The notes: generated by a model not told the origin, from the sequence alone. A stretch of 64,000 bases of DNA from Candidatus Latescibacterota bacterium (GCA_030658975.1 JAUSBL010000055.1:971-64970), one strand, 5' to 3'. Counted from the first letter of the stretch, positions 2,469-41,694 are shown. Program-made: numbers and translations.

Positions 2469-5114
2469 TCACTTCAACAGGGTCATCTTGCGCAGCTCGC
2501 GCGCGTCGCTCGTGCGCAGCTCCGCCACGTAGACGCCCGAAGCCGCCGCGCGGCCGTCGCCGTCGCGGCCGTCCCAGGTCGCGACGTGCTCGCCCGCGGC
2601 CAGCGTCTCAGCGACCAGGCCGCGCACCAGGCGGCCCCGCTCGTCGAAGATCCGCAGGCTGACGCGGCCCTGCCGCGCCACGGTGAACCGCAGCTCCGTC
2701 GACGGGTTGAACGGGTTCGGCGCCGCCGGCGCCAGGGCGGTCCGCCAGTTCGGCACCTCGCCCGCCCCGGTCGAGGCCAGGACGAGCTGTTCGGAGCCCA
2801 TGATCACCGGCGCCGCGCGGCCCTGGGCGACCCAGGCGTCGTACAGTTCCTGGCCCAGGGTGTTGGTCGTGTTCGCATCGCGCAGGAACTCGACGTACTC
2901 CTTCGAGATGCTCTGGTAGTAGAGCGTCACCTCGACGATGCTCGCGCCGTCGGGCAGGTCGTAGAGCGTGTCATCCCAGAACTGCCCGTCCTGGTAGCCG
3001 CCGTAGCCGACCACCGGCGACTGCACGGCCTCCAGTTCGGCCAGCGAGGCGCCGCGCGGCGGGATGCGGTTGTCCATGAAGACCGTGTCGTTGAGCACGA
3101 AGTGGAACGAGGGACCCGCGTCGATGCCGAGGATCGCGCCGAGGCGGTGCGAGGTGCCGGGCTCGATGTGGAAGATCTTCGCTTGCGGGTCGTGGTTCAG
3201 CGTGCCGGTGGCCGGGTCGTAGGCGCCCGACTCGTAGATCAGGTTCGACTGGTCGTCGAAAGCCCGCACGTTGATCCAGATGCGCCGGCCTTCCGGGTAC
3301 CCGCTGGGCAGCTTGTGGGCCGTCTCGTTGGTGACGCGCACCGTCACGCCCGGTCCACCGCCGACGGGCGACTCGAAGACCTCGAGCGTGGCCGCCATCT
3401 GCAGCATCGCCGTGACCCGCGCCTTGCCCGCGTTGAGGGCCGTCTGGTCGAATTCGCCCGGGAACCAGGTGGGGATGAGGTCGGGCACGAAGTGGTTGCC
3501 GCCGGTGAGGTCGTGCACGCCGAGGTCGGTGCGGATCGGCCCCGTGGTGGCGCCGCGCCCGGTCGCGTCGGCCATGTGGCAGTCCTGGCAGGTGGAGACG
3601 ATGCCGCCCGGCTTCACGCCGGCGAACTGCGGCGCGTAGACGCCGCCCTCGGCGTAGGCGCTGACCGACCACTCGCTGAACGTGCGCTCGACCGGGAACA
3701 TGTTGCGCGTGTTCCCGTCGGGATGCGGCGCGTCGAGTTCCTGCACGACGTACTCGCCGGGCGCCGTACCGGCGACGAAGGCCGGGTTGCTCACGTCGTG
3801 GCAGGTGCCGCACAGGTTGGCGGTGCGGTGGAAGGCCGAGTCCAGGAACTGGTGCGAGGCCTGGGCGTCCGCGTAGGGCCCGCGGCGGATCGGATCGGGA
3901 TCGGACACGGACTGGCCGTTGCCGTAGCCGAGCACCGGCGCGTCGAGCCGGGCCAGGATGGCCTCGTCCACGGCGGGGCTGACCCCCGGCTGGTAGATCG
4001 GATCGACCGCGCGGTGGCAGTAGTCGCACTGCACGCCCTGGCGATCCTTCGCCGTGATCATGCCGCCGGAGGTGTCGGTGGAGCGGCCCTCCTGCCAGCC
4101 GCCCGGGGTGTGGCAGCGCAGGCAGAGGTCGCCCGAGGCGGGCGCGTCCTGCTCGGCGATGACCATCGTCGCGGCGAAGACGGGGTCGCGCATGGTGTTG
4201 CCCATCATGCTGCCGCGCCAGTTGGACCAGGGCTCCACGGCCGCGCTGTAGCCGCCGTGGCAGGTCGAACAGGTGCCGTCGGGATTGTCGTACACGCCCG
4301 CGCCGAAGGGCTGCGTGCCGGGCAGGCGGAAGTCGCGCAGCGTGGTGGGCGCGACGCCGCCGACGTGCGGTTCGATCGTGAAGTCGGAGGGGCTGTCGCC
4401 GTGACCGGCGTTGCCGGCCGCGTCGCGGGCGTGGACCCGGATCCGCGACGTCGCGCCCGGCAGGTTGGGCACGAACCAGGCGTAGCTGCTCGAGGCTGGC
4501 AGGTTGCGGGCCACGGTCTCCCAGTGGACGCCGCCGTCCTCGCTCAGGGAGATGTCGATCGCGGCGATGCCGCTCGGGTCGGTCGCGGCCCAGGTCAGCG
4601 TCTCGGTCGTGTTCGGTACGACGCTCTCGCCGCCCGCCGGCCAGGTCACCGTGACCAGCGGCGGATCGACGTCCAGCCCGCCGGACGGCGTCAGGTGGTC
4701 GATCAGGTCGGCCTGGTTCACGTTCAGCGCGGCGCCCACGTTGGAAGCCTTGAGCCCGGGGAAGGTGGGCGTGTTCGAGAAGTTCACCGTGTCGGTGATC
4801 TCGATCAGCGCAGAGAATCCGTCGTTGTCCGCGTCCTGCGGCTCGGCGGCGGCGACCGCCGCGGCGTTGGAGAGGCCGTTGTTCACGCCGACTTCCACGG
4901 CGAGCCCGTAGGGGTTGCGCGGACCGCCGCCGCTGAAATCGAAGTGGCACACGCCGCAGTGGTTGGCGCGGGACGGCAGATCGTCCAGCACGCTGTTCAC
5001 CGCGGCGGGGTACCGGTTGAAGAAGGCGTTGCGGATCGGGTTGCGGGCCTGGGCCGCGCCGGCAGCGACGAGGCACAGCGCGAGCAGACAGAACCAGAGG
5101 CGAGTGCAGCGCAT
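2469..5114 (-). CDS. Secreted hexaheme c-type cytochrome with BNR-like repeat region and C-terminal FlgD-Ig/T9SS-type sorting domain
   Basis: Six CxxCH motifs: CGVCH, CSTCH, CLRCH, CDYCH, CGTCH, CQDCH. Signal peptide MRCTRLWFCLLALCLVAAGAAQA. Start moved to ATG 5114 because AAGGAG lies 7 nt upstream (the track start 5147 adds 11 aa). The tail reads PNPFNPSTELRF...SGVYVAEL...KMTLLK. Confidence 0.85.
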   Translation of the reverse strand: MRCTRLWFCLLALCLVAAGAAQARNPIRNAFFNRYPAAVNSVLDDLPSRANHCGVCHFDFSGGGPRNPYGLAVEVGVNNGLSNAAAVAAAEPQDADNDGFSALIEITDTVNFSNTPTFPGLKASNVGAALNVNQADLIDHLTPSGGLDVDPPLVTVTWPAGGESVVPNTTETLTWAATDPSGIAAIDISLSEDGGVHWETVARNLPASSSYAWFVPNLPGATSRIRVHARDAAGNAGHGDSPSDFTIEPHVGGVAPTTLRDFRLPGTQPFGAGVYDNPDGTCSTCHGGYSAAVEPWSNWRGSMMGNTMRDPVFAATMVIAEQDAPASGDLCLRCHTPGGWQEGRSTDTSGGMITAKDRQGVQCDYCHRAVDPIYQPGVSPAVDEAILARLDAPVLGYGNGQSVSDPDPIRRGPYADAQASHQFLDSAFHRTANLCGTCHDVSNPAFVAGTAPGEYVVQELDAPHPDGNTRNMFPVERTFSEWSVSAYAEGGVYAPQFAGVKPGGIVSTCQDCHMADATGRGATTGPIRTDLGVHDLTGGNHFVPDLIPTWFPGEFDQTALNAGKARVTAMLQMAATLEVFESPVGGGPGVTVRVTNETAHKLPSGYPEGRRIWINVRAFDDQSNLIYESGAYDPATGTLNHDPQAKIFHIEPGTSHRLGAILGIDAGPSFHFVLNDTVFMDNRIPPRGASLAELEAVQSPVVGYGGYQDGQFWDDTLYDLPDGASIVEVTLYYQSISKEYVEFLRDANTTNTLGQELYDAWVAQGRAAPVIMGSEQLVLASTGAGEVPNWRTALAPAAPNPFNPSTELRFTVARQGRVSLRIFDERGRLVRGLVAETLAAGEHVATWDGRDGDGRAAASGVYVAELRTSDARELRKMTLLK

Positions 5115-5391
5115 GTCAGTCTCCTTCGGAGATTGGCTGCGGGACACTCCGGAGCGGCAGAGATCCCGGGCGAGAACGGATCATCAAGAACCAACCAAGG
5201 GGAAATTGTAACGGAAGTATCACGGAGATTCCAGATAATGATATGATGACATCAATATTCAGTATCTAAATGCAAGTCACCGCCGTGGACCGCAATGACG
5301 GTTGATCCGGCCAGGGCCCTGTGACAAATTCCGGCCGTGCGGGCCCAACGCGGCCCACCTCTGCCCTCCACAGCGAACCACGGAACCAGAC

Positions 5392-7065
5392 GTGACCAAC
5401 CTGTCGAATCTGGCCGACCGCCCCCGCACCGCCGCCGCCATCGTCGCTCTCGCGGCCGCGCTGGTCTACGCGGGCACGCTGGGCCACGCCCTGGTCTGGG
5501 ACGACGCCAACGTCCTGGCCGGCATGCGCGAGGCCGCCGCGCGCGGCCCGGGCGCCCTGCTCGGGGCGGAGTTCCTCGCCGACACCGGCTACCACCGTCC
5601 CGTCGTGCTGTTGAGCCTGCGGCTCGACGATCTGCTCGGCGGCGGCGCGGTCTTCGTGTTCCACCTGACCAACGTGCTGCTGCACCTCGCCGCGTCCGTG
5701 CTGACGCTCCTGCTGCTGCGCGCGTGGCTGCGCAACGACGCGGCCGCCCTGGCCGGCGCCCTGGTCTTCGCGGTCCACCCCGCGCACGTGGAGTCGGTGG
5801 CCTTCGTGTCGGGCCGCACCGACCTCTGGGTCACGGTGCTCGGACTCGCCGCGGCTCTGGCCTGGACGTGGTGGCGGCGCGGCGCGCGCCGTGCCGGGCC
5901 GGCGGCGCTGCTGCTGTTCCTGCTGTCGCTGTTCGCCAAAGAATCCGCCTACCTGCTGCCCGCGGCGCTGCTCGTGATCTCGGCCCTGCTCCCGCAGGAC
6001 GCGCGCGACCCGCGCCCCTGGTGGCGTCGCCAGGCCGGCTGGCTGGGCGTGGCCGTCGTGACGATGGCCGTCGCCGCGGCGCTGCGCGTCGGCGTTGCCG
6101 GGGTGGGCTTCGGCGAGGGCGCGGCGACGGCCGGCAGCCGCCTCGGCGCCGATCTCACCACGCGCCTGGGTCACCTGCCCGCGCTCGCGGCCTGGTACCT
6201 GCGGCTGCTGCTGGTCCCCTGGCCCCTGAACGCCTACTGGTCCGTGCAACACCTCGCTCCGGGCGTCCTGACCTGGGCGGCGGCGGTCACGGCGGTCGGC
6301 GTCGTGGCGCTCGCGCGCCGCGGCGGCGCGGCCGGCCTGGCCTGGACGTTCATCTTCCTGCTGCCGGTGCTGGGGTTCGCGCCCCTGCAGGGGGCGCCCT
6401 TCGCGGAGCGCTTCCTCTACCTGCCGTCGTTCGGCTGGTGCCTGGTCGCGGGCGCACTGTTCGCGAGGGCGGCGGACGCCGGCCGTCGCCGCGCCGCGAC
6501 GGTGACGGCGGCGGTCGTCGTGGCGCTTCTGACCACCGCGACGCTGACGCGCGTCCCGGTCTGGAAGGACAACGTCACGCTGTTCGACGACATGGCGCGC
6601 CGCTCCCCCGGCGAGTACGTCGTGCAGCACGACCTCGGCGCCGCCCTGCACCTCGCCGGCGACCGGGCCGGTTCGCTGGCCGCCTACCGCCGGGCGGTCG
6701 CCCTGGCGCCGACCCACGAACCGTCGCTGCGCGCGCTCGGCGTGGCCGAAGGCGCCGCCGGCAACCTCGACGCGTCGTACGACCTGCTGCGGCGCGCCGT
6801 GGCCGCCGATCCCCGGCGCCCCGAGGCCCACTGCAACTTCGCCGTGATCGCCGCACACCGCGGCGAGCTCGGGCTGGCCGAGACCCACTACCGACGCGCG
6901 CTCGAATTGCGCCCGGACTACGCCCTCGCGCTGGCTGGCCTCTGCGAGACACTCGCCGCCCGCGGCGACGCCGATGGCGCGCGCCGCCACCTCGCGGCGC
7001 TCCAGCGCCTGGACCCGCGTCTGGCCGCCGAGACGCAGCGCCGGCTCACGGGAACGTCGCCGTGA
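5392..7065 (+). CDS. Polytopic membrane protein with C-terminal TPR repeats (TMTC / GT39-like putative glycosyltransferase)
   Basis: ORF 5302-7065. Hydrophobic N-terminal two-thirds with FVFHLTNVLLHLAA, AVHPAHVESVAFVSGRTDL and FLYLPSFGW blocks, then TPR-like ALAP/ALELRPDYA repeats. GTG 5392 is preferred as start (VTNLSNLADR); the exact start is uncertain. Confidence 0.7.
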   Translation: MTNLSNLADRPRTAAAIVALAAALVYAGTLGHALVWDDANVLAGMREAAARGPGALLGAEFLADTGYHRPVVLLSLRLDDLLGGGAVFVFHLTNVLLHLAASVLTLLLLRAWLRNDAAALAGALVFAVHPAHVESVAFVSGRTDLWVTVLGLAAALAWTWWRRGARRAGPAALLLFLLSLFAKESAYLLPAALLVISALLPQDARDPRPWWRRQAGWLGVAVVTMAVAAALRVGVAGVGFGEGAATAGSRLGADLTTRLGHLPALAAWYLRLLLVPWPLNAYWSVQHLAPGVLTWAAAVTAVGVVALARRGGAAGLAWTFIFLLPVLGFAPLQGAPFAERFLYLPSFGWCLVAGALFARAADAGRRRAATVTAAVVVALLTTATLTRVPVWKDNVTLFDDMARRSPGEYVVQHDLGAALHLAGDRAGSLAAYRRAVALAPTHEPSLRALGVAEGAAGNLDASYDLLRRAVAADPRRPEAHCNFAVIAAHRGELGLAETHYRRALELRPDYALALAGLCETLAARGDADGARRHLAALQRLDPRLAAETQRRLTGTSP

Positions 7066-32474: not shown

Positions 32475-33398
32475 ATGACCGTCCTGAACATCGTCCTGCC
32501 CATCTTCCTGGTCATCGGCCTGGGCTATGCCCTGCGCCGGCTGCGTTTCGTCACGACGGCCGGCAACGCCGTCCTGACGCGGATGGTCTTCTACGTGGCC
32601 GCGCCGGTGCTGCTGGTGCGCGGCGCCGCCGGCACGGATCTGCGCAGCAGCCTCGACCCCCGCGTCCTGGGCGTCTTCATCGTCGTGAGCGTGCTGGTCG
32701 CGGCCGCGACGTACGCGCTCGCGTTCCGCTCCCGCGCTTCGCGGCGCGGCGTCTTCGCGCAGGGCGCGCACCGCAGCAACATGGTCTTCGTGGGCCTGCC
32801 GCTGGTCATGAACGCCTTCGGCAAGGAGGCCGTCGGCCAGGTCTCGGTGCTGGTGGGGGCGATGGTCGTGGTCTACAACGTGCTGTCGATCGTGGTGCTG
32901 ACCCTGCCCCACCACAGCGGCGGGCCGGGACGACACGTGGATCTGACGGGCATGCTGAAGCGCATCGCGGTCAACCCGCTGGCGCTGGGCAGCGCGACCG
33001 GGATCATCCTGTCGGCGACCGGCATCGGCATCCCGCACGCGCTCGGCGGCGCCATGGACCTCGTGGGCGCCACTGCCCTGCCCCTGGCTCTGGTGTCGGT
33101 CGGCGCGGGGCTGGACCTGGGCCGCCTGCGCCGCGAATTGCCGGGCGCCGCGACAACCAGCGCCCTGAAGCTCGGACTCTACCCCGCGCTCGTCTACGTC
33201 GGGCTGCGCGCCCTGGGTCTGGAGGGGATCGCCCTGCAGGCGCCGGTCCTGCTGGCCGCCACGCCCACCGCCGTGGTAAGCTACGTCATGGCCCAGGAGA
33301 TGCAGGGCGACGAACAGCTTGCAGGCGCCATGGTCATCGGCTCCACGCTGCTCTCGCTGCCGACGAGCATCCTGTGGCTGCTGTTGCTCGGCGTCTGA
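32475..33398 (+). CDS. AEC (auxin efflux carrier) family transporter
   Basis: ATG 32475 in ORF 30126-33398. MTVLNIVLPIFLVIGLGYALRR..., about 10 hydrophobic segments, 307 aa. Confidence 0.75.
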   Translation: MTVLNIVLPIFLVIGLGYALRRLRFVTTAGNAVLTRMVFYVAAPVLLVRGAAGTDLRSSLDPRVLGVFIVVSVLVAAATYALAFRSRASRRGVFAQGAHRSNMVFVGLPLVMNAFGKEAVGQVSVLVGAMVVVYNVLSIVVLTLPHHSGGPGRHVDLTGMLKRIAVNPLALGSATGIILSATGIGIPHALGGAMDLVGATALPLALVSVGAGLDLGRLRRELPGAATTSALKLGLYPALVYVGLRALGLEGIALQAPVLLAATPTAVVSYVMAQEMQGDEQLAGAMVIGSTLLSLPTSILWLLLLGV

Positions 33399-33435
33399 AC
33401 GCCGCCGCCGTGCGCGGCGGAGTGCAGGGGATGGC

Positions 33436-34839
33436 TTGGAGACCGGCCGCCGCGACTTCCTGAAGCTGATCGCCGCCGCGGCGGCCGCCGGCGCGCTGCC
33501 GGCGCGGGCCGGCTCTTCCACACCCGGCGCCGAGCCCACGCCCGCGCCGTCCCGCCCCGACATCCTGGTGATCCTGGCCGACGACCACCGCCACGACGCC
33601 CTCGGCTGCGCCGGCCACCCCTACGTGCGGACGCCCGCCCTGGACCGGGTCGCGGCCGGCGGCGTCCGCTTCACGAACGCCTGCGTGACGACGTCGCTGT
33701 GCAGCCCGTCGCGCGCCAGCTACCTGACCGGACGCTACCCCCACCAACACGGCATCTTCACGAACGCCGGCCGGCCGCTGAGATCCGGTATTCCCACCTA
33801 CCCCGAGCTGCTGCAGGCGGCGGGCTACGAGACGGCGTTCTGGGGCAAGTGGCACCTGGGCGCCTTTCCCCGCCCCCTCTCCCAGCCCGGGTTCGACCAC
33901 TGGACCGTGTTGCACGGTCAGGGCGCCTATGCGCCGAACGACATCGTCGTCGACGGGCAGGTCGTCCACGAGGACCGCTACGTCACCGATGCCCTGACCG
34001 CGCGGGCCCTGGAGTTCCTGGAGCGCCCCCATGAGAAGCCCCGGCTGATGGTGCTGAGCCACAAGGCGGCGCACGCGCCGTTCGTGCCGGCCGCTCGCCA
34101 CGCCGATCTCTACGCGGGCGAGAACCCCGATCTTTTCTGGGCCCCGGACGAGGACGTATCGCAGAAGCCGGTCGGCGCGGAACAGGCGCTTTACGGGTCT
34201 CATCGCGAAACGGTTCTGGACTACTACCGCTGCCTGGCGGCCGTCGACGAGAGCATGGCCGCCCTGGACGCCGCGCTGGAGAGGTCGGGGCGCTTCGACG
34301 ACACGCTGGTGATCTACACCAGCGACAACGGATTCCTGCTCGGCGAGCACGGCGGGCTCTGGGACAAGCGCCGCGCCTACGAGCCCGCCATCCGTGTGCC
34401 GCTGCTGGTACGGTGGCCGCGCGCGCTGCCGGGCGGCGGCCTCTGCAACGAGCTGGCCCTGAACATCGACCTTCTGCCGTCCCTGCTCGAGGCCGCCGGC
34501 GTGAAGTCGCCGCCCGGCGTGCAGGGACGTTCCTGGCTGCCGGTCGCCCGGGGCGCGCCCGGCCGCGACGCCTTCCTCTACGAGTACTTCCAGGACGAGG
34601 GACCGGTCGGTTCGCAGGTCGCCGTACGCACGAAGCGCTGGAAGTACATCGTGCCCCTCGACCGTCACGGCGGCCGCAACGCGCGCCGACCGGTGGAGCT
34701 CTACGATCTCGCCGCCGATCCCGGCGAACTGCGCAACCTCGCCGGCGACCCGGCGTTCGCGACGGCCCGGGACGAGATGGAGGCGGCTCTCGTGCGGCAG
34801 ATGGACGAGACGGGCTACGTCTTCAGCGGATCGCGATGA
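33436..34839 (+). CDS. Cys-type sulfatase with twin-arginine signal
   Basis: ORF 33319-34839. TTG 33436 gives LETGRRDFLKLIAAAAAAGALPARA (Tat motif). Also DILVILADDHRHD and CSPSRASYLTGRY (CxPxR formylglycine motif). Confidence 0.85.
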   Translation: METGRRDFLKLIAAAAAAGALPARAGSSTPGAEPTPAPSRPDILVILADDHRHDALGCAGHPYVRTPALDRVAAGGVRFTNACVTTSLCSPSRASYLTGRYPHQHGIFTNAGRPLRSGIPTYPELLQAAGYETAFWGKWHLGAFPRPLSQPGFDHWTVLHGQGAYAPNDIVVDGQVVHEDRYVTDALTARALEFLERPHEKPRLMVLSHKAAHAPFVPAARHADLYAGENPDLFWAPDEDVSQKPVGAEQALYGSHRETVLDYYRCLAAVDESMAALDAALERSGRFDDTLVIYTSDNGFLLGEHGGLWDKRRAYEPAIRVPLLVRWPRALPGGGLCNELALNIDLLPSLLEAAGVKSPPGVQGRSWLPVARGAPGRDAFLYEYFQDEGPVGSQVAVRTKRWKYIVPLDRHGGRNARRPVELYDLAADPGELRNLAGDPAFATARDEMEAALVRQMDETGYVFSGSR

Positions 34840-35963
34840 CGCCCGGCCCGCTCGCGCCGTCCCTGCTGCTCGTCAAGCCCGCCGGCGCCGACTGCAACTT
34901 CCGCTGCGACTACTGCTTCTACCTCGACGCCGACGCCCGTCGGGGCGCCTCCCGCCGGCGCATGAGCGACGAGGTCCTCGAGCGGATGATCGCCTCCTAC
35001 CTGGCGCTCGATCTGCCGGTCCACGCCTTCTGCTGGCAGGGCGGCGAGCCCACGCTGATGGGGCTCGACTTCTTCCGCCGCGTGACGGAACTGCAGGAGC
35101 GCCACGGACGGCCCGGCACGGTCATCGCCAACAGCCTGCAGACCAACGCCGCGCTCATCGACGACGCCTTCGCCGGCCACCTTGCCGACTACCGCTTCCT
35201 GGTGGGGTGCAGCCTCGACGGGCCGCCGCACCTGCACGACCGGCGGCGGCGGAGCGCGGGCGGCGGCGCGACCCACGACCTCGCCGTGGCCGGGTTGCGC
35301 CGTCTCCAGGCGCGCGGCGTGGCGGTCAACACCCTCTGCGTGGTCCACGACACGAACGTCGGCCACGCGCGCGAGGTCTTCGACCATCTCGTCGGCCTGG
35401 GCTTCGACCACCTGCAGTTCCTGCCCTGCGTCGAGTTCGGGCCCGACGGCGCGCCGCGGCCCTGGACGATCACGGGAACGCAGTGGGGGGAGTTCCTGAT
35501 CGGCATCTTCAAGGCGTGGCGCAACGCAGGGATGCCGGTCGCGGTGCGCAACCTCGACGCCGTGCTGCAGCGCCTGGTCGACGACCGGCCCGGTGACTGC
35601 ACGATGGACGACAGCTGCCGGCAGTACCTGGTCGTCGAGCATGACGGCGGCTACTATCCCTGCGACTTCCGTGCGACCCCGGCTTGGCGCCTGGGTGACG
35701 TGATGTCGATGAATCCGGCAGAGGCCATGGCTACGGCACGGATGCTGGAGTTCGGTGCGATCAAGACGCCGGCCTCGCCCGACTGCCCGCCATGCCGGCA
35801 CTTCGACGTCTGCCGCGGCGGCTGTCCCGCCCGGCGGAATCCGCGCGAAGCCGCGGGCAGGGAGTGGCTGTGCGCGGGGACGCTCGCCTTCCTCGACCAC
35901 GCGCGGGGATCCTTCGAGGAAATGGCGGACGGGATCCGCCGAGCGCATCGGGATCGCGCCTGA
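34836..35963 (+). CDS. Anaerobic sulfatase-maturating radical SAM enzyme (anSME, SPASM domain)
   Basis: ATG 34836 overlaps the sulfatase stop (ATGA). CNFRCDYC (CxxxCxxC); GGEPTL; C-terminal CPPCRHFDVCRGGCP. Confidence 0.85.
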   Translation: MTPGPLAPSLLLVKPAGADCNFRCDYCFYLDADARRGASRRRMSDEVLERMIASYLALDLPVHAFCWQGGEPTLMGLDFFRRVTELQERHGRPGTVIANSLQTNAALIDDAFAGHLADYRFLVGCSLDGPPHLHDRRRRSAGGGATHDLAVAGLRRLQARGVAVNTLCVVHDTNVGHAREVFDHLVGLGFDHLQFLPCVEFGPDGAPRPWTITGTQWGEFLIGIFKAWRNAGMPVAVRNLDAVLQRLVDDRPGDCTMDDSCRQYLVVEHDGGYYPCDFRATPAWRLGDVMSMNPAEAMATARMLEFGAIKTPASPDCPPCRHFDVCRGGCPARRNPREAAGREWLCAGTLAFLDHARGSFEEMADGIRRAHRDRA

Positions 35964-35965
35964 GG

Positions 35966-37048
35966 TCATGCCGCGCCCCCGTTCCACGGCAGCCCAGGAT
36001 CGAAGAAGTGCAACCCCTGCCCGAGCCGCGCCCCGATCGACGACGCCGGGTAGCGCGCCACCAGTTCCGGGTGGTCGAAGAACCCCGCCGGCCGCTTCTC
36101 CCCCCGCCCGACCATCTCGTAGCGGACATCCAGGGGCCGCTCCACGTTGGGAGCGTACGCCACACGCACCAGGCATTCCGACGCGCCCGACTGCACGGCC
36201 CTCACGGCCGCCTCGCGCGCCCCGTACGACCCGATCCGGTCGATGTGCGAGAGGTGCTTGCCGGACAGCGCCCCGCCGCCGATCGGGATGCGCGGGCCGT
36301 AGAAGTCCATGACGAGCTTGCGCCCGGTCTGGCCGTTGTCGCCGTTGCTGCCGGCCTGCACCAGCGGGCCGTTCGGGTTGATCATCAACTCGATCTCGTC
36401 CCAGCGGGCGCGCCAGCGCGGGTCGCGTTCCCTGGCCTCGCCGTAGGCCCGCGCGAGCACCTGCACGATCGCCTCGCAGACGTCCATGAACTTCGCGTCC
36501 GCACGCTGCTGCAGCGTGACCAGCAGGTGCTCCACGATCCAGCGCCCGCCCTCCTCGCGCAGGCGCAGCAGCAATTTGCCGTCGGGTCCCTGCCCGGCCA
36601 GCGGCCCGTCGGCGCAGGCCGCGGCCAATGCTTCGCGCAGCACGTGGCAGAGGTAGTGCTCGGGCGGCAGGTAACGCGTGTGCGCGTCGTAGCCGGCCCA
36701 ACCGAGCACCACGCTCTGGTCGTTGACCTTGCCCGTGAACCGCGCGGGGTCGTCGAGCACCTCGCACACGGCGCTGTGCACCGTGTAGCGGTTGGCGTCG
36801 ACGTGGTTGCCCGGCACGTAGCCGATCGCCAGGCCCGTTTCCACCACGATGTCCCGCAGCGGGCGCGCCAGGGGCCGGCGCGTGCAGACGCCGCCGGTGA
36901 GCCAGAGCTGGCAGGACCAGACGGCGACCTCGATCTGGGCGTAGGCGTCAGCATCGACGCCGACGCACTCGGCGACGATGGCGTCGGCGACCTGGTCGCA
37001 GTACTTGTCCGGGTGGCCGGGCAGGACGATCTCGCTGATGCGGATCAT
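35966..37048 (-). CDS. Divergent S-adenosylmethionine synthetase (MetK) paralogue, last gene of the MoxR cassette
   Basis: 360-aa ORF. It contains PGHPDKYCDQVADAI, NDQSVVLGWA, PDGKLLL, GDNGQTGRKLVMDFYG and GGGALSGKHLSHIDRIGSY, each paralleling a block of the canonical MetK at 40421-41578. AAGGAG SD; ATGA overlap with the upstream gene. Confidence 0.8.
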   Translation of the reverse strand: MIRISEIVLPGHPDKYCDQVADAIVAECVGVDADAYAQIEVAVWSCQLWLTGGVCTRRPLARPLRDIVVETGLAIGYVPGNHVDANRYTVHSAVCEVLDDPARFTGKVNDQSVVLGWAGYDAHTRYLPPEHYLCHVLREALAAACADGPLAGQGPDGKLLLRLREEGGRWIVEHLLVTLQQRADAKFMDVCEAIVQVLARAYGEARERDPRWRARWDEIELMINPNGPLVQAGSNGDNGQTGRKLVMDFYGPRIPIGGGALSGKHLSHIDRIGSYGAREAAVRAVQSGASECLVRVAYAPNVERPLDVRYEMVGRGEKRPAGFFDHPELVARYPASSIGARLGQGLHFFDPGLPWNGGAA

Positions 37049-38427
37049 GAGCGAACTCCTTTCAACGCGGGTAGCTGGGTGCAGGCGATTCCGGCGCGCT
37101 CCAGTGCGGCCGGGCTGCCGTCGCGGCTCACCAGCGCGTGCAACTGCGTGCCCGCCGTTTTCGCTACGAGCTGCCGGTCCAGCGCCTCGATGTAACCGTC
37201 GGTGACCACCACGGCCGCTGTCGGGCGCGTCCTGACCAGGTGTTCAAGCACGCAGGACATGCTGGTGCCGCCCGTGGTCTGCGCCTTCAGGGCGCCGCGC
37301 TCGATGACCGCGGGTGCGACAGTGTCGCTGAAGGCCCAGAACGGCCGGCGGATCAGGCCCGACAGTTGCCCGAGCAGGGCCACGAGGTGCGGCATCTCGG
37401 CGCTCATGGATCCCGACACATCCAGGTAGACCTGGGCCGTGCCGGTGTGGCGCGGCGCCGTCCCTCCCCAGCCTGCTTCCGGCAGGAAAGGCGCCCACTG
37501 CGATCGCAGGAAGGCGCGGCGATCCTGCGGCGACAGCACCGGCAGGCGGTACTCGTGCGGAGATTCGATACAACGTCGCGAAAGGCGGTCGGGCGTGAGG
37601 TGGCGCCGGAGGATCGCGAGCGTCGTCGCCCGCCACTGCCGCAATGGCGCCTCGGCTGACGCGACGAGCGCCTCGTAGGAATTGCAGCCGACGCCGCGGC
37701 CTCCGGGTGAGCGCCAGATCCCTCGCCCGTTCATTTCCCGCATCGACTTCTCGAGAGTCTCCTGAAGCGGGCCCGACAGCTCGCGGCCGAGCTCGTCGTG
37801 ATTGCCGAGCAGATCGCCGGCATCGTCGCCTCCGTCGTCACCGAACGTGAAGGGGCCCGCACCCGGCGTTCCCGAGACCATCCCCGCCAAGTGCGTGGCG
37901 AGCGCCTCTATGTCATCGACGATCAGGCGCCCCGCATATAGGCTCGACCAGGCGCGGATCCAATACGGCAACTGGGGGTACTCATCTCGGCCGCTGTGGG
38001 CGGACAGCCAGTCATGCTCTTCCCCGTTCATCGGGCGGAGGAGTTTCTGGCGGCCTGCGGCATCTGCATAGTAGCGCCCCATCATCCCGGAATACCCGGG
38101 GCCGTACTGGCGGTGAATGATGGCGTTGATCACGGCGTCGACCGCCAGATGACGGGCCGGAGTCAGCATCTGCCGCTGCTCCGTGTGGCGCAGGATCACG
38201 TGGAGAAATTCGTGGCAGATGACCGCCTTCACCTCGTCGTCGCTGGTGCAGTGTTCGCGGACGAATGCGAGGTTGACCAGCAACCGGGGCCGGTCGGCGC
38301 AGGTCACCGCCAGCGTCGGCACCGCGTTGGTGAATTCGACTTCGAGGATCCGCAACGCGGCCCGGATGGCGAACGGATTTTCGTCGACCAATTCCAGCAG
38401 GATCGAGCGGAAGCGCTTTTCGTTCAT
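37045..38427 (-). CDS. HExxH metallopeptidase-like N-domain fused to a vWA domain (DUF2201_N/DUF2201-type MoxR partner)
   Basis: ATG 38427 in ORF 37045-38877 (GGAGGGA SD). HEFLHVILRH; MIDAS-like YLDVSGSM...TTGGTS...VVVTDGY. ATGA overlaps at both ends. Confidence 0.75.
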   Translation of the reverse strand: MNEKRFRSILLELVDENPFAIRAALRILEVEFTNAVPTLAVTCADRPRLLVNLAFVREHCTSDDEVKAVICHEFLHVILRHTEQRQMLTPARHLAVDAVINAIIHRQYGPGYSGMMGRYYADAAGRQKLLRPMNGEEHDWLSAHSGRDEYPQLPYWIRAWSSLYAGRLIVDDIEALATHLAGMVSGTPGAGPFTFGDDGGDDAGDLLGNHDELGRELSGPLQETLEKSMREMNGRGIWRSPGGRGVGCNSYEALVASAEAPLRQWRATTLAILRRHLTPDRLSRRCIESPHEYRLPVLSPQDRRAFLRSQWAPFLPEAGWGGTAPRHTGTAQVYLDVSGSMSAEMPHLVALLGQLSGLIRRPFWAFSDTVAPAVIERGALKAQTTGGTSMSCVLEHLVRTRPTAAVVVTDGYIEALDRQLVAKTAGTQLHALVSRDGSPAALERAGIACTQLPALKGVRS

Positions 38428-38891
38428 GAGTAGAATCCCTCCAGGTCGAAGAGTTCGAGCCCGCGTCCGAGGCTTGATGCCGTCCACAACACCGGCCGCG
38501 CCGGGTCGTAGAGCTGGGCCGTGCAAAGGCCGAGCATCAAAGCCTGCCGCAGCACCGCGGCACGACTTCCCCGCTCCACCGAGAGCCGCCCGGCGTCCGG
38601 CGGCAATGGACGGCATACCAGCCGCTTCTCGGGGATCGAGAACACGCCGCGCAGACTCTCGGGGCCGGCATAGCCCGCTTCGACCAGCAGGCGCTCCAAT
38701 GTCTCTACGCAGTCCGCTGCGCCGAAAGTCAGCCCGAGCCTGATCACGCGTGGGCAGCGAATCGCACCTTCGTCCTTTCCCAGCAGCGTGGAAGCAAGGT
38801 GTTCGGTGCGGACGCGGCTCATGGGGCCGCCCATGTTCGCGTGCAGGGCGGGGCGGCATGCCCGCCGTGTGTTCCACCCGGATGGATTCAT
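38424..38891 (-). CDS. 155-aa protein of unknown function wedged between the MoxR and vWA genes
   Basis: C-terminal part of track ORF 38424-39662. ATG 38891 overlaps the MoxR stop (ATGA) and its own stop overlaps the next start (ATGA). I recognise no motif. Alternative starts: 38834 and 38822. Confidence 0.5.
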   Translation of the reverse strand: MNPSGWNTRRACRPALHANMGGPMSRVRTEHLASTLLGKDEGAIRCPRVIRLGLTFGAADCVETLERLLVEAGYAGPESLRGVFSIPEKRLVCRPLPPDAGRLSVERGSRAAVLRQALMLGLCTAQLYDPARPVLWTASSLGRGLELFDLEGFYS

Positions 38892-40288
38892 GAGCGCACC
38901 CGCTGGTTTAACAGCGCGACGCAGGCTTCGATCTCCGCCTCCAGTTCGGCCGGGGCATGGGGGTGGACGTTGGCGACCAGACACCAGTTGAAGAATTGAC
39001 TCGCCCTTTCGTAACGACCGTCTCGGGTACCCAGATCGGCGAGCACGCGCGCGAAGCTGGTGTAAAACGGACTGACCGAATCGCTCTCGCTCAGACGTTC
39101 GTACCAGGAGAACTCTCCCGATACGGACAGGATGGGTGCAGCCAGCTTGCCGAGATCGTTGACCCCCTCCGCTCCGATCGCGAGCGCGCCTCCGGCGGCG
39201 GCCGCGTAGGTGGCGAAGGCGAAGGCAGCGGCACGGGCCCTGGTTTCGGATGCCAGGAATTGGGCCACGGCCTGTGTTCCCTGATCCGGATCGGTGCAAC
39301 GGTCGATCAGGATGCCGAGCTTCTTCGCCAGCGTCTTCTCGGCCAGGAACTGATGGATCCAGTTGGCTTGGGTCGCGAATCCGCTTTCCCAGGCAAGGCG
39401 ATGGGCCGCCGTGAGGGCCGCCCTGTTGACCTCGACCCCCCAGGTGCGATGAGGCAGACTGGCCCGGAGCACGTCCGAAAAGAGGCTGTCGGTTTCTTTC
39501 CCGACCACGATCGCGGCCGCCAGCAGGCTGCGAGCCAGCAGGCGCGAACGGCGTGGTGATATCCGGATATTCGCGCTGTTGAGTGCCGTGGTCGCGCTGG
39601 TGACGTAGGTCAGGATGCGCGGCGGGCAGCCCTCGATCCGCTCGAGGAAGGTCCGCCGCCACGTCTCGACCAGCCCCTTAAGCCGCCCCCCGTCATCGGT
39701 GACTTTCCCCTCCCCGCTCGGATCTGCAACGAGGCTCCGCGCCTCGTCGTCCAGGCCGTCCCAGTCAGGCGCCTCCACGAACAGCGCGAACCGGTCGGCC
39801 AGCGCCTGGTCCAGCGGCTCCGAGCCCGCGTAGTCCTCGGCCCCGCCCTGGTCCGTCGAGCACGGGTTCATCGCCGCCCAGCGGTAGCGCAGCCTGGGCA
39901 GCGCGATCCCCTGGACCCGTCGTTCGTGCACGAGCGCGAACAGGCGGTTCTGGTGCTCGGGCTTGCAGCGGCTGATCTCGTCGACCAGCACCGACTCGGC
40001 GCCCCAGACCGTGGCCGGCGTCTCGAGGAACTTCACGCCGCCGTGTTCCTGGTCCGGGTAGGGGAAGCCGACCAGGTCGTCGAAGGAGATCAGGCTGGCG
40101 TTGTAGTGGCGGTGCTCGAGGCCCAGGGCCTCGGAGAGGGAGTTGAGCAGGTAGGTCTTGCCGGTGCCCGAAGACCCGATCAGCAGGAGCGGATCCTCGG
40201 TGACCAGCGCGGCCAGGATCACCGGCTCGAGCCGTTCGAATCCGTAGACGCCGAGAGCGGACAGACGGGAATGCGCACAGGTAGGCAC
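38888..40288 (-). CDS. MoxR-like AAA+ ATPase with ~250-aa C-terminal extension
   Basis: 466-aa ORF. GTG start preceded by AAAGGAGGA. Walker A LLIGSSGTGKTYL, Walker B SVLVDEISRCKPEHQN, and an AAA lid region. Confidence 0.8.
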   Translation of the reverse strand: MPTCAHSRLSALGVYGFERLEPVILAALVTEDPLLLIGSSGTGKTYLLNSLSEALGLEHRHYNASLISFDDLVGFPYPDQEHGGVKFLETPATVWGAESVLVDEISRCKPEHQNRLFALVHERRVQGIALPRLRYRWAAMNPCSTDQGGAEDYAGSEPLDQALADRFALFVEAPDWDGLDDEARSLVADPSGEGKVTDDGGRLKGLVETWRRTFLERIEGCPPRILTYVTSATTALNSANIRISPRRSRLLARSLLAAAIVVGKETDSLFSDVLRASLPHRTWGVEVNRAALTAAHRLAWESGFATQANWIHQFLAEKTLAKKLGILIDRCTDPDQGTQAVAQFLASETRARAAAFAFATYAAAAGGALAIGAEGVNDLGKLAAPILSVSGEFSWYERLSESDSVSPFYTSFARVLADLGTRDGRYERASQFFNWCLVANVHPHAPAELEAEIEACVALLNQRVRS

Positions 40289-40292
40289 GTGG

Positions 40293-40355
40293 TCCTCCTT
40301 TTAGCGGATTTGCCGGAATGGCGGGGCCGCAAGCTGGATTCAAATCCCCCGGCCC
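40293..40355 (-). promoter_or_regulatory. Structured leader element upstream of the MoxR gene, paralogous to the metK leader element; its 3' strand runs into the SD
   Basis: Minus-sense sequence: GGCCGGGG-GATTTGAATCCAGCTTGCGG-CCCCGCC-ATTCCGG-CAAATCC-GCTAAAAGGAGGA-CCAC-GTG. It shares GATTTGAnTnCAGCTTGCGG and AAATCC(A)GCTAAA with the metK leader. Confidence 0.55.
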
Positions 40356-40420: not shown

Positions 40421-41578
40421 TCAATTGTCCGTCGTGACGTGTTCCCACAGGAAGTCGGGCTTCTCGCGCCCGAAGTGCCCATAGGCCGCCGTGTCGAAGT
40501 AGATGGGCCGCAGCAGCCGCAGCCGCTCGATGATCCCGGCCGGCGTGAGATCGAACTCCGCGCGCAGGGCCGCGGCGATCTCCGCATCACGCGTGCGCCC
40601 CGCCGCGGGCGTCATGACCAGGAAGCTGACCGGCTCGGCTTCGCCGATCGCGTAGGCCAGCTGGACGAGGCACTTGCCGGCCCAGCCGCGCGCCACGACG
40701 GTCTTGGCCAGGAAGCGCGTCATGTAGGCGGCCGAGCGGTCGACCTTCGAGGGATCCTTGCCCGAGAACGCGCCGCCGCCGTGGGGCGCCGCGCCGCCGT
40801 AGGTGTCGACGATGATCTTGCGTCCGGTCAGGCCGGTGTCGCCCTTCGGACCGCCGACGGTGAAGGAGCCGCTGGGGTTGATGTACTCGCGGTAGCCGGC
40901 GCTGCGTCTCGCCGCGGGAATGACCGGGTCGATGATGTGCTCGCGCACCTGCGCCTGCAGCTCAGCCAACCCGATGCCCGGATCGTGCTGGGTGGAGAGC
41001 ACCACCGCTTCGACCGCGACCGGGCGGCCATCCTCGTAGCGGTAGCTCACCTGCGACTTGGCGTCCGGGCTCAGCCAGGGCAGCGTGCCGCAGCGGCGGA
41101 CCTCGGCCTGCTTCTGCATCAGCCGGTGGGCGTCGACGATGGGCGCCGGCATCAGCACGCCGGTCTCGTCGCAGGCGTAGCCGAACATCAGACCCTGATC
41201 GCCCGCGCCCTGCGCACCCTGCGCGCCCTTCACGGCTGCGGTGATCTCGGAGGCCTGGCGGTTGAAGCGCACGTCGATGAAGCAATTGTCGGGATCGATG
41301 CCCGAATCCGCATCGGCGTAGCCGGTGTCGCGGATGACGGCGCGGGTCAGTTCCTTCGCGCGGGCGCTCACCGCGTCGAAATCCTCGTCCCGTTCGGTCC
41401 GGAACTCGCCCGCCACCACGACGTGCTGGTCGGCGAGCAGCGTCTCGCAGGCGACGCGCGCCGCGGGGTCCAGTTCCAGGAAGGCATCGACGAGCGCATC
41501 GGAGATGCGGTCGGCCAGCTTGTCGGGATGACCCTCGGAGACCGATTCGGAGGTGAAAACACCGTCGCGGATGAACAT
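40421..41578 (-). CDS. metK: S-adenosylmethionine synthetase (canonical)
   Basis: ATG 41578 in ORF 40421-41596. It contains ESVSEGHPDKLADRISDA, GAGDQGLMFGYA, GDTGLTGRKIIVDTYGG and GGGAFSGKDPSKVDRSAAY. Confidence 0.95.
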   Translation of the reverse strand: MFIRDGVFTSESVSEGHPDKLADRISDALVDAFLELDPAARVACETLLADQHVVVAGEFRTERDEDFDAVSARAKELTRAVIRDTGYADADSGIDPDNCFIDVRFNRQASEITAAVKGAQGAQGAGDQGLMFGYACDETGVLMPAPIVDAHRLMQKQAEVRRCGTLPWLSPDAKSQVSYRYEDGRPVAVEAVVLSTQHDPGIGLAELQAQVREHIIDPVIPAARRSAGYREYINPSGSFTVGGPKGDTGLTGRKIIVDTYGGAAPHGGGAFSGKDPSKVDRSAAYMTRFLAKTVVARGWAGKCLVQLAYAIGEAEPVSFLVMTPAAGRTRDAEIAAALRAEFDLTPAGIIERLRLLRPIYFDTAAYGHFGREKPDFLWEHVTTDN

Positions 41579-41588
41579 GAGTTCCCCC

Positions 41589-41684
41589 AAACACAACAGC
41601 CCGCTCAGCTTGACGCCAAAGCGGGCTTCCTCTCGCTTTAGCTGGATTTGTATAGCGCCCGCAAGCTGAACTCAAATCGGCGCT
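41589..41684 (-). promoter_or_regulatory. metK 5' leader: candidate H-type pseudoknot riboswitch (SAM-II/V-like layout) followed by an intrinsic terminator
   Basis: Minus-sense sequence: AGCGCC-GATTTGAGTTCAGCTTGCG-GGCGCT-ATA-CAAATC-CAGCTAAAGCGAGAGG (41684-41634). This is followed by stem AGCCCGCT (41627-41620) / AGCGGGCT (41605-41598) and GUUGUGUUU. Confidence 0.5.
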
Positions 41685-41694
41685 GCTCCGTACC

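Follow-up and report, generated by a model that had tools for sequence, protein, structure and literature searches.

A 64,000-nucleotide stretch of DNA from a Candidatus Latescibacterota bacterium (GCA_030658975.1, JAUSBL010000055.1:971-64970; hereafter the window) contains, directly behind the housekeeping gene metK, a cassette of four coupled genes that is real, conserved and, as far as our searches show, undescribed. The genes encode a MoxR-class AAA+ ATPase, a 155-residue protein, a protein with HExxH and vWA domains, and a divergent paralogue of the S-adenosylmethionine (SAM) synthetase MetK, here called MetKp. Control by SAM riboswitches recurs across lineages, as do the linkage and coupling of the four genes, the linkage to metK and the residue pattern of MetKp. 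From this sequence evidence we tentatively favour a reading, to which we give a probability of about 40%, in which MetKp is a methionine adenosyltransferase (MAT)-like enzyme that is induced by SAM depletion, gated by the MoxR and vWA-peptidase proteins, and secures the supply of SAM (adenosyl-sulfonium).

The SAM riboswitch before the cassette is the strongest functional clue. An earlier reading of the window from its sequence alone (the sequence-only reading) had no SAM riboswitch at this position and saw no obvious terminator between metK, which ends at 40421, and moxR, 132 nt further on the same strand. This spacer in fact contains a GC-rich hairpin and a SAM-II-type pseudoknot (type B) that abuts the moxR Shine-Dalgarno (SD) region, AAAGGAGGA, 6 nt 5' of the GTG start. 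The type B element shares the core GAUUUGA / AGCUUGCGG / GCUAAA with the aptamer in the metK leader (type A), and this core pattern has two matches in the window compared to 0.00 expected. Its P1 helix pairs 40350-40346 with 40326-40323, P2a pairs 40330-40327 with 40307-40304, and an extra hairpin in L3 pairs 40322-40320 with 40314-40312. The moxR SD (40300-40294) lies inside the 3' strand of the pseudoknot. The Rfam SAM_alpha match of the metK-leader aptamer (E 2e-4, score in Table 1) is under the gathering score of 36, and its 72.6 bits on a custom SAM-II model, R1, were obtained with a model of which it is itself one seed. Rfam at gathering level gave no match over the window, where the riboswitches emerge at relaxed thresholds only. 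Model R1, built from type A leaders without variants, found a variant element at another cassette locus (L056) with E 0.005, and a fragment of the window copy with E 0.68. Minimum-free-energy folding of the leader regions, which models no pseudoknots, was not significant compared to shuffles. Because the window copy misses the Rfam and R1 thresholds, its assignment to type B rests on motif, structure and family context.

The family context came from a metagenome scan, which returned 122 variant (type B-like) elements. In 60 distinct elements, including the window copy, the pseudoknot helix P2a and the extra L3 hairpin covary: pair 32-59 of P2a occurs as GC22/CG21/UA2/AU1, and pair 40-50 of the L3 hairpin as GC26/AU16/CG16. 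Overall, 90% of cells are paired, compared to 82% in shuffles, and the observed score was reached by 0/500 shuffles. The gene that follows is metK for 15/122 elements and a cassette moxR for 10/122, with further cassettes slightly farther downstream. From the association with metK, the variant elements probably bind SAM and repress expression. The variant abuts the moxR SD in the window, in its close relatives L001-L003 and in L056. It resembles SAM-II and SAM-V (RF00521, RF01826) in its GAUUUGA, AGCUUGC and GCUAAAG core, its H-type pseudoknot, the SD in the 3' strand and the association with metK, but differs in the extra covarying L3 hairpin and in its sub-threshold Rfam scores.

Other lineages have riboswitches at the same place that Rfam recognizes at gathering level. 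SAM-I/IV aptamers are found directly before moxR in L014, L015, L016, L020, L022, L023, L025, L054 and L060, and SAM-II aptamers precede moxR in 8 Gemmatimonadota loci (36.9-46.6 bits). As two unrelated aptamer classes occupy the same position, we concluded that the cassette is probably made when SAM is low and is part of the SAM regulon. In L018 and L030 the cassette follows 77-115 nt behind a riboswitch-controlled metK, with no riboswitch directly 5' of moxR; in L008 and L011 a riboswitch-led metK is also upstream, but 1-1.4 kb away. Tandem arrangements, before the cassette or before metK, were seen as well. A second SAM-II copy was found with model R1 in all Gemmatimonadota loci searched (L033-L047; for example 3995-4053 and 4127-4209 in L037), L016 has two SAM-I/IV copies (979-1073 and 1230-1329), L060 has SAM-I/IV and SAM-II in series (6101-6202 and 6320-6379), and L030 has tandem riboswitches at 2977-3037 and 3091-3153. 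Tandem aptamers usually make for a sharper switch.

The coordinates of the four minus-strand genes behind canonical metK, as given by the sequence-only reading, were reproduced (Table 1), together with its case for translational coupling: ATGA start/stop overlaps of 4 nt at 38888-38891, 38424-38427 and 37045-37048 join all four genes. Its domain architecture was also borne out, as AAA_5, AAA_3 and the three MAT domains were matched by profiles, the HEFLH and metal-ion-dependent adhesion site (MIDAS) residues are invariant, and an AlphaFold2 (AF2) model contains the vWA fold. Only the DUF2201 and DUF2201_N profiles fell short, slightly under their Pfam cutoffs for the window protein. In the canonical metK, all active-site residues match those of E. 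coli MetK, and the true start is likely the ATG at 41578, giving MFIRDGVFTSESVSEGHPDK.

Table 1. Cassette genes, canonical metK and leader elements in the window
Feature	Position	Strand	Description
MoxR-class AAA+ ATPase gene (moxR)	38888-40288	-	466 aa; start codon GTG at 40288
155-aa open reading frame (ORF), family-specific protein	38424-38891	-	ORF call
HExxH/vWA gene	37045-38427	-	460 aa; DUF2201-like architecture
MetK paralogue MetKp	35966-37048	-	360 aa; divergent methionine-adenosyltransferase-fold enzyme
Canonical metK	40421-41596	-	ORF as listed, TTG start; TIGR01034 482.5 bits
SAM-II riboswitch aptamer, metK leader (type A)	41621-41693	-	Rfam SAM_alpha 29.9 bits
SAM-II-type pseudoknot riboswitch variant (type B) before moxR	40294-40355	-	motif, structure, family context
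Terminator-like hairpin with U-rich tail, 3' of metK-leader aptamer	~41589-41627	-	-19.9 kcal/mol, z -1.7

How widespread is this arrangement? A MetKp scan over one genome per GTDB species found 53 loci, all of them in metagenome-assembled genomes (MAGs). These belong to Proteobacteria, Riflebacteria, Elusimicrobia, Lentisphaerae, Bacteroidota, Ignavibacteria and Verrucomicrobiota and, at ~35% identity, to Gemmatimonadota, Planctomycetota and Lysobacterales. In all, cassette loci span about ten phyla and come from MAGs or metagenome contigs only. In tblastn searches with the window proteins, the order moxR, small ORF, vWA gene, MetKp gene was found wherever a full-length MetKp has upstream sequence, and the set of four recurs on ten further metagenome contigs, where 4-nt overlaps are nearly always present (5/6 of the first gene-called contigs). 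The sequence-only reading had allowed that the paralogue might lie next to MoxR and vWA genes by chance; the neighbourhood survey it proposed linked MetKp to both across genomes, and with cassette order and content kept in every informative locus, chance juxtaposition is out.

The survey also linked the cassette to metK. Among 98 flanking ORFs at 30 MAG loci, canonical metK was the most recurrent Pfam family (7 members; all others 3 at most). At least four phyla have the cassette adjoining metK, with either of the two coming first, and no conserved fifth gene besides metK was found 5' of moxR. In one locus of reversed order (L094, 1616-7800), a riboswitch and a Gemmatimonadota-type cassette are followed by a canonical-type metK that is 48% identical to that of the window.

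Membership of the SAM regulon through two unrelated riboswitch classes, and adjacency to metK in at least four phyla and in either order, would suit an accessory of the methionine/SAM cycle that is purely metabolic and has no link to conflict, an explanation we consider rather improbable. MetKp would then adenosylate a methionine-related thioether that is not free L-methionine, such as a salvage intermediate without an alpha-amino or carboxylate group, or would form 'prozyme'-like hetero-oligomers with MetK that alter MetK kinetics at low substrate, with the MoxR and vWA proteins as a chaperone for its assembly or metal insertion. Two findings count against such a role: the 98 flanking ORFs include no other recurrent gene of the methionine cycle or of salvage, and the cassette was found in MAGs and metagenome contigs only, in a variable, island-like context.

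Apart from metK, the flanks of the cassette vary, and 8/10 long metagenome contigs have defence, toxin-antitoxin or mobile-element neighbours. These are DruA and an insertion sequence (IS) element in L056, McrBC in L057, ScoMcrA-HNH, SIR2 and RelE in L058, WYL and a 2137-aa helicase in L060, AbiEii, Fic, AEP-helicase and an IS element in L182, AIPR and a DNA methylase in L183, PIN-FitA and MTase-HNH in L184, and an integrase and transposases in L185. PADLOC, run on the flanking ORFs of the MAG loci, reported type I restriction-modification, PD-T4-6, PDC-S01/S05/S11 and MADS.

SAM, the universal methyl donor, is reportedly attacked by phages as a way round SAM-dependent defences, among them BREX and type I restriction-modification. 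The flanks in long contigs, the PADLOC matches among the MAG-locus flanks, the patchy, MAG-only distribution and the existence of decayed copies (L035, L050, L102, L173 and L185) all favour a conflict (anti-phage or abortive-infection) system, with MetKp as an effector and not a maker of SAM. We regard this as possible but on balance unlikely. A phage SAM lyase or MetK inhibitor would deplete SAM and so derepress the riboswitch, as a first signal; the MoxR, vWA-peptidase and 155-aa proteins would then free MetKp at a second checkpoint, in the manner of ternary vWA-MoxR systems; and MetKp would split ATP at C5' without methionine, or adenosylate another nucleophile, leading to loss of ATP or to a toxic or signalling product. 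The riboswitch would thus serve a mobile module as its sensor of infection or stress, and the MAT-derived enzyme, having given up free methionine as a substrate, would either make a new adenosylated product, possibly with a peptide or protein nucleophile, or destroy ATP, a proposal we hold with the same doubt. If true, the cassette would be the first defence-type system under the control of a metabolite riboswitch, and MetKp the first effector of MAT descent. However, the window cassette itself is flanked by a putative sulfatase/anaerobic sulfatase-maturating enzyme (anSME) pair and a large ORF for a multi-pass membrane protein, and metK is the sole strongly recurrent family among the 98 flanking ORFs of the MAG loci. 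A toxin that responds to every shortage of SAM or methionine would come at a high price, and the tight linkage to metK is more natural for a role in SAM supply.

What sort of enzyme is MetKp likely to be? Pfam matched all three MAT domains (N, M and C) in MetKp. On TIGR01034, however, it scored 136.3 bits, below the equivalog cutoff of 309.4 (canonical metK, 482.5 bits), and its identity to canonical MATs is 27-31%. We aligned 121 family members with E. coli MetK, the numbering of which is used throughout. Residues H14, D16, K17, E42, D118, D163, K165, D238, R244, K245, K265, D271 and R272 are kept in 120-121/121 members, and the ATP, triphosphate and metal ligands and the catalytic His are also kept in the Gemmatimonadota-type clade, except for R244K in L041. 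In contrast, E55 is lost in the cassette-linked MATs (G, A, R or F instead), position 98 (Q98) is variable, and all of them have a gating loop cut by 7-9 residues. The MetKp family also has the fixed changes L241Q, H257I, F262L, K269H and I302P (position 269 is R/K in the Gemmatimonadota-type clade), and its C-terminal ~60 residues differ from canonical MAT. MetKp thus shares with canonical MetK the three-domain MAT fold, the catalytic His and identical ATP, triphosphate, Mg and K ligands, and differs in its sub-equivalog score, its pocket, its fixed changes and its C-terminus. Of the catalytic blocks that the sequence-only reading described as kept, those for ATP and triphosphate stand, whereas Glu55, Gln98 and the gating loop are lost family-wide.

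In human MAT2A, Glu70 (equivalent to E55), Gln113 (Q98) and Asp258 (D238) bond the methionine main chain. Mutants of the MAT gating loop form SAM more than 200-fold less well while retaining triphosphatase activity, and are rescued by binding of the partner MATbeta (PMC6850014). As the residues that grip methionine and the gate of the active site have been removed, MetKp is not a simple duplicate of MetK, and because the Gemmatimonadota-type clade has the same changes, the rebuilt methionine pocket is ancestral to all cassette-linked MATs. Nor is MetKp a decayed copy, since its ratio of nonsynonymous to synonymous substitution rates (dN/dS) is 0.10-0.15, below that of metK in the same genome pairs (0.31-0.33). 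Judging from its residues, MetKp alone should be a poor SAM synthetase, one that needs a partner or a different second substrate or nucleophile.

This residue pattern bears on several explanations. Its losses and retentions are those expected of an ATP-cleaving, methionine-independent enzyme, as the conflict system would require, and the triphosphatase activity retained by gating-loop mutants (PMC6850014) agrees with this. In favour of a metabolic accessory, the losses fall on the subunit holding the methionine main chain, with D238, K265 and D271, which act in trans, retained; a MetK:MetKp heterodimer could therefore have one complete site. The strong purifying selection on MetKp also fits. 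A pure decoy, as in one form of the earlier sensor-effector hypothesis, fits poorly with an invariant catalytic site and a dN/dS of ~0.1.

Two further ideas about MetKp were tried and rejected. A new transition-metal site made of two His residues (H266/H269), which would have accounted for a metal-inserting MoxR/vWA pair, is out, as D266H occurs in one subclade only and position 269 is R/K in the Gemmatimonadota-type clade; its failure tells against the metabolic accessory. Kinship with the 'SAM synthetases' of Streptococcus prophages (phrog_1569) is out too. The Javan3 protein is a canonical MAT (48% identity to E. coli MetK, with E55, Q98, K269 and I302 kept), and the phage 'SAM synthetases' matched by MetKp are canonical MATs. 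MetKp had no plasmid match at E <= 1e-30.

The MoxR-like protein of the window matched AAA_5 (30.1 bits, cutoff 22) and AAA_3 (29.4 bits, cutoff 27) in Pfam, and its top sequence matches in the PDB were midasin AAA modules and the MoxR structure 2r44. The Walker A Lys (K44) and the Walker B Asp-Glu (D103-E104) are kept in 37-38/40 homologues. Its N-terminal ATPase module is conserved, and its C-terminal half (~300 aa) evolves fast. Its score on bpMoxR (PF20030), the MoxR of the ternary systems, is 17.3 bits compared to a cutoff of 27; other cassette MoxRs scored 17.5 (L037) and 24.1 bits (L098), and the L070 homologue scored 33.1 bits, above the cutoff, which counts towards the conflict system. 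Three cassette MoxR members passed it in a separate Pfam search. In PADLOC-DB v2, the window MoxR gave weak matches only (mad8, 1.4e-5; PDC-M26A, 0.0028), and no model matched the HExxH/vWA protein, the 155-aa protein or MetKp, a result that speaks against the conflict system.

The third protein combines an N-terminal HExxH metallopeptidase-like domain with a C-terminal vWA domain. Its HEFLH..HTE motif and the MIDAS residues DVSGS, TTGGT and TDG (DxSxS, T, D) are invariant in 35 homologues. The window protein scored 24.2 bits on DUF2201 (PF09967; cutoff 26.4) and 20.3 on DUF2201_N (PF13203; cutoff 23.2). Being slightly below both, it is probably a divergent branch of DUF2201. A distant cassette homologue (L037) exceeds the DUF2201_N cutoff with 32.7 bits, and many family members have precomputed PF09967 or PF13203 matches. 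The order of an HExxH domain and then a vWA-like domain, next to a MoxR ATPase, is that of DUF2201_N/DUF2201 proteins; the cassette protein diverges from them, sub-cutoff in the window, and we found no characterised member from which function could be transferred. Foldseek searches with an AF2 model of the protein (mean predicted local distance difference test, pLDDT, 75) returned vWA folds including NorD of NorQD, and a weak BlaR1 match for the N-terminal domain. Sequence searches of the PDB, 50,697 phage records and 72,556 plasmid records gave no match.

Another candidate explanation is protease-controlled turnover or disaggregation of MetK. Here the MoxR and vWA-HExxH proteins would pull out and cut MetK that is damaged, inhibited or polymerised by phage, and MetKp would be a bait or adaptor. 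The invariant catalytic Glu of HExxH and the adjacent metK speak for this, and in a preprint (10.1101/2023.02.27.530186) the SAM lyase of phage T3 reportedly inhibits SAM synthesis besides cleaving SAM. A bait, however, needs no invariant catalytic centre held at a dN/dS of ~0.1, and many cassettes have no metK nearby. With nothing specific in its favour, we consider this hypothesis of the sequence-only reading very improbable indeed.

The second protein of the cassette defines a family of its own. The 155-aa protein has no match in Pfam, NCBIfam, PADLOC or PHROG, and has 277 homologues (315 clusters at 50% identity). Among the matches listed, all relatives are small, about 50-280 aa (coordinates, not domains). 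Its N-terminus is predicted to be disordered and yet contains the conserved motif AN-x-GGPMSRTR-x-E; this is followed by a compact alpha/beta core (AF2, pLDDT above 90) and an invariant C-terminal GFY[AS]. The core had no fold match in the PDB at E <= 0.001. In the distant, Gemmatimonadota-type clade of cassettes, the small ORF encodes 227 aa, without a Pfam match.

The closest relatives of the window are MAGs from Danish wastewater (JADJIV01 and JADJYS01). Comparison of the window with L001-L003 revealed a mosaic of divergence. The end of metK, the riboswitch, the ATPase core and MetKp have 88-99% nucleotide identity (the riboswitch 89-99%, the ATPase core and MetKp about 88-97%; the L003 contig covers only the last 92 nt of metK). 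Within MoxR, identity falls from 92-94% in the N-terminal part to 57-75% in the C-terminal half, and the same 57-75% applies to the 155-aa ORF and the middle of the vWA gene (window 38900-39650 and 37860-38010). In the diverged block the synonymous rate (dS) is 0.6-0.75, compared to 0.13-0.37 elsewhere, with dN/dS of 0.26-0.50. Positive selection was not found in this fast-evolving central block, as no dN/dS was above 1; the 3-4-fold increase in dS suggests that alleles were exchanged or coalesce deeply. Together, these three diverged parts look like a co-evolving interaction module that has been exchanged or kept as divergent alleles, which also speaks for the reading we favour. A deeply diverged, mosaic central block favours the conflict system, whereas the lack of any dN/dS above 1 does not, and a purely metabolic role leaves both the peptidase domain and the fast-evolving partner block unexplained.

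GC content dips in this region, to 0.665 over 38001-40000 compared to 0.70-0.73 nearby. In the closest public MAG (L001, JADJIV010000010, long-read; positions 4765-6147 and 7669), in-frame stops interrupt moxR twice and the vWA gene is broken up. These look like assembly frameshifts, which make the dN/dS values of L001 moxR unusable and its 59% MoxR identity to the window an artefact; L002 and L003 give 72-73%. Decayed cassettes take several forms. L102 (5825-6423, minus strand) and L173 (6790-8544) have a riboswitch, then a MoxR remnant of ~140 aa and after it a canonical-type metK; L035 (8001-8583) and L050 have lone MetKp fragments; and in L185 (4731-9128) split or shortened cassette genes lie next to transposases and an integrase.

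Does the cassette belong to a known system? MoxR/vWA pairs are client-specific remodellers, such as NorQD, CbbQO and RavA-ViaA, and those characterised are mostly enzyme-maturation factors, which also agrees with a metabolic accessory. With the MoxR/vWA activases (CbbQ-CbbO for Rubisco, NorQ-NorD for NO reductase, CoxD-CoxE and RavA-ViaA) the cassette shares a moxR gene beside a gene for a vWA protein with an intact MIDAS, and a specific enzyme encoded alongside as presumed client; in addition, the cassette vWA model matches NorD. It differs in that its presumed client is a MAT-fold enzyme without an evident requirement for a metal cofactor, in the N-terminal HExxH peptidase-like domain of the vWA protein, and in the obligatory 155-aa protein, the variable MoxR C-terminal half of ~300 aa and the SAM riboswitches.

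The second comparison is with systems in which vWA proteins fused to peptidases, and paired with MoxR, act against invaders (PMC7159879; PMC12839542), a precedent that lends weight to the conflict system. The cassette resembles these ternary vWA-MoxR conflict systems (Kaur, Burroughs, Iyer and Aravind 2020, PMC7159879; MoxR-vWA-iSTAND, PMC12839542) in its MoxR, its peptidase-fused vWA protein, a rapidly diverging third component, an island-like context and some MoxRs above the bpMoxR cutoff. However, a component of the VMAP, iSTAND or beta-propeller type was not found, the peptidase precedes the vWA domain (DUF2201 type), and the window MoxR is sub-cutoff for bpMoxR; this architecture, without any of those third components, weakens the case for conflict. 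A MAT-like enzyme with SAM riboswitches is part of no described version: PMC7159879 is silent on SAM synthetase, and a set like this cassette is absent from both papers. The cassette therefore resembles activases and ternary systems and belongs to neither by their defining features.

Full-text searches of the literature yielded no description that links a MoxR/vWA set to a MAT paralogue or to SAM riboswitches. The view of the sequence-only reading that the cassette is undescribed thus held in PADLOC, in the literature and in phage and plasmid collections. Restriction to uncultured organisms may explain the absence of a prior description.

How might the four proteins work together? In the reading we favour, SAM-supply insurance, the four genes would make up a self-contained module that moves horizontally and is switched on by scarcity of SAM. 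While SAM is plentiful, the SAM-II-type pseudoknot (elsewhere SAM-II or SAM-I/IV, often in tandem) would hide the moxR ribosome-binding site or terminate transcription, and a drop in SAM would lead to co-production of the four translationally coupled proteins. The output enzyme would be MetKp. By analogy with CbbQ-CbbO/Rubisco and NorQ-NorD/NO reductase, a MoxR AAA+ hexamer, the vWA protein and the 155-aa partner could form a dedicated ATP-driven machine for remodelling, gating or maturation. The vWA protein, which also carries the peptidase, would dock through its MIDAS site, and the target would be MetKp or MetKp/MetK hetero-oligomers. The net role would be to insure SAM supply under SAM depletion, which, given the genomic location of the module, would most plausibly include attack by phage SAM lyases and MetK inhibitors. 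Which protein remodels which, the chemical product and the biological trigger are the parts of this scheme that we infer. The evidence is compatible with two hypotheses of the sequence-only reading, a MoxR/vWA-gated alternative synthetase and a sensor-effector set that responds to attack on the SAM supply.

Several points weigh against SAM-supply insurance. The loss of E55, Q98 and the gate in every cassette-linked MAT argues against the reaction of L-Met and ATP to SAM, and 'SAM supply' may be the wrong product for MetKp. Conserved adjacency and translational coupling are what suggest MetKp as the client of the ATPase, in place of MetK or some foreign protein. The rarity, patchy distribution and defence-island flanks of the cassette suit a conflict effector at least as well as a back-up. 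As to control, the window copy of type B is sub-threshold (SAM_alpha partial, 11.5 bits; SAM_V, 14.2 bits; R1 partial, 11.7 bits), and no riboswitch was found before moxR in L005, L013, L028, L057 and L059. Riboswitch variants can also switch ligand, as is known for SAM-I variants that sense spermidine (PMC10853860); these belong to another riboswitch class and another gene context than the cassette leader, and serve as a caveat on ligand identity.

The cassette adds to the SAM regulon an uncharacterised member that is controlled by two unrelated riboswitch classes and consists of a MAT-fold enzyme with its own AAA+ machine. MetKp may reveal an active site that is completed by a partner, or a nucleophile other than methionine. 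The cassette would provide a new class of client for MoxR/vWA remodellers and possibly a handle on the uncharacterised DUF2201 architecture. It may also link the sensing of SAM depletion by riboswitches to phage defence, and may be a missing part of the protection of SAM supply in bacteria.

Further observations concern the surroundings of the cassette and the variant riboswitch. In the window, two plus-strand ORFs (34413-35963 and 33319-34839), one sulfatase-like and one with a CxxxCxxC motif, are convergent toward the cassette. By eye, from translations, the CxxxCxxC ORF looks like a radical-SAM sulfatase-maturase. The maturase-like ORF stops 2 nt from the MetKp stop codon, and therefore there is no space for a terminator between them. 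Opposite the metK SAM-II aptamer (41593-41680, plus strand) there is a sub-threshold Rfam match (26 bits) to Bp2_287, a Burkholderia small RNA candidate; it may reflect complementarity to the SAM-II leader and not a separate RNA.

The SAM-II-like variant with the L3 hairpin is widespread, occurring in the window (Table 1), in L056 (6656-6740), in L011 (2526-2610) and in L061-L180. Of 72 ORFs downstream of variant elements, ~45 lack any Pfam domain; the others include Hist_deacetyl and SNF2 helicase genes, two of each, whereas genes usual for methionine biosynthesis were mostly not seen (2 Abhydrolase_1 matches only). Two unrelated contigs, L058 (11421-16458, minus strand) and L059 (2680-6099, minus strand), have a second operon headed by a SAM riboswitch beside the cassette, which encodes a Hist_deacetyl-family protein, an HTH_11 protein and several ORFs without a Pfam match. 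In L056, four SAM-II-type elements, two per strand, lie within 1.1 kb (5639-6740) around small Pfam-less ORFs, with the cassette and DruA on one side and a Pkinase / VWA / PP2C set on the other.

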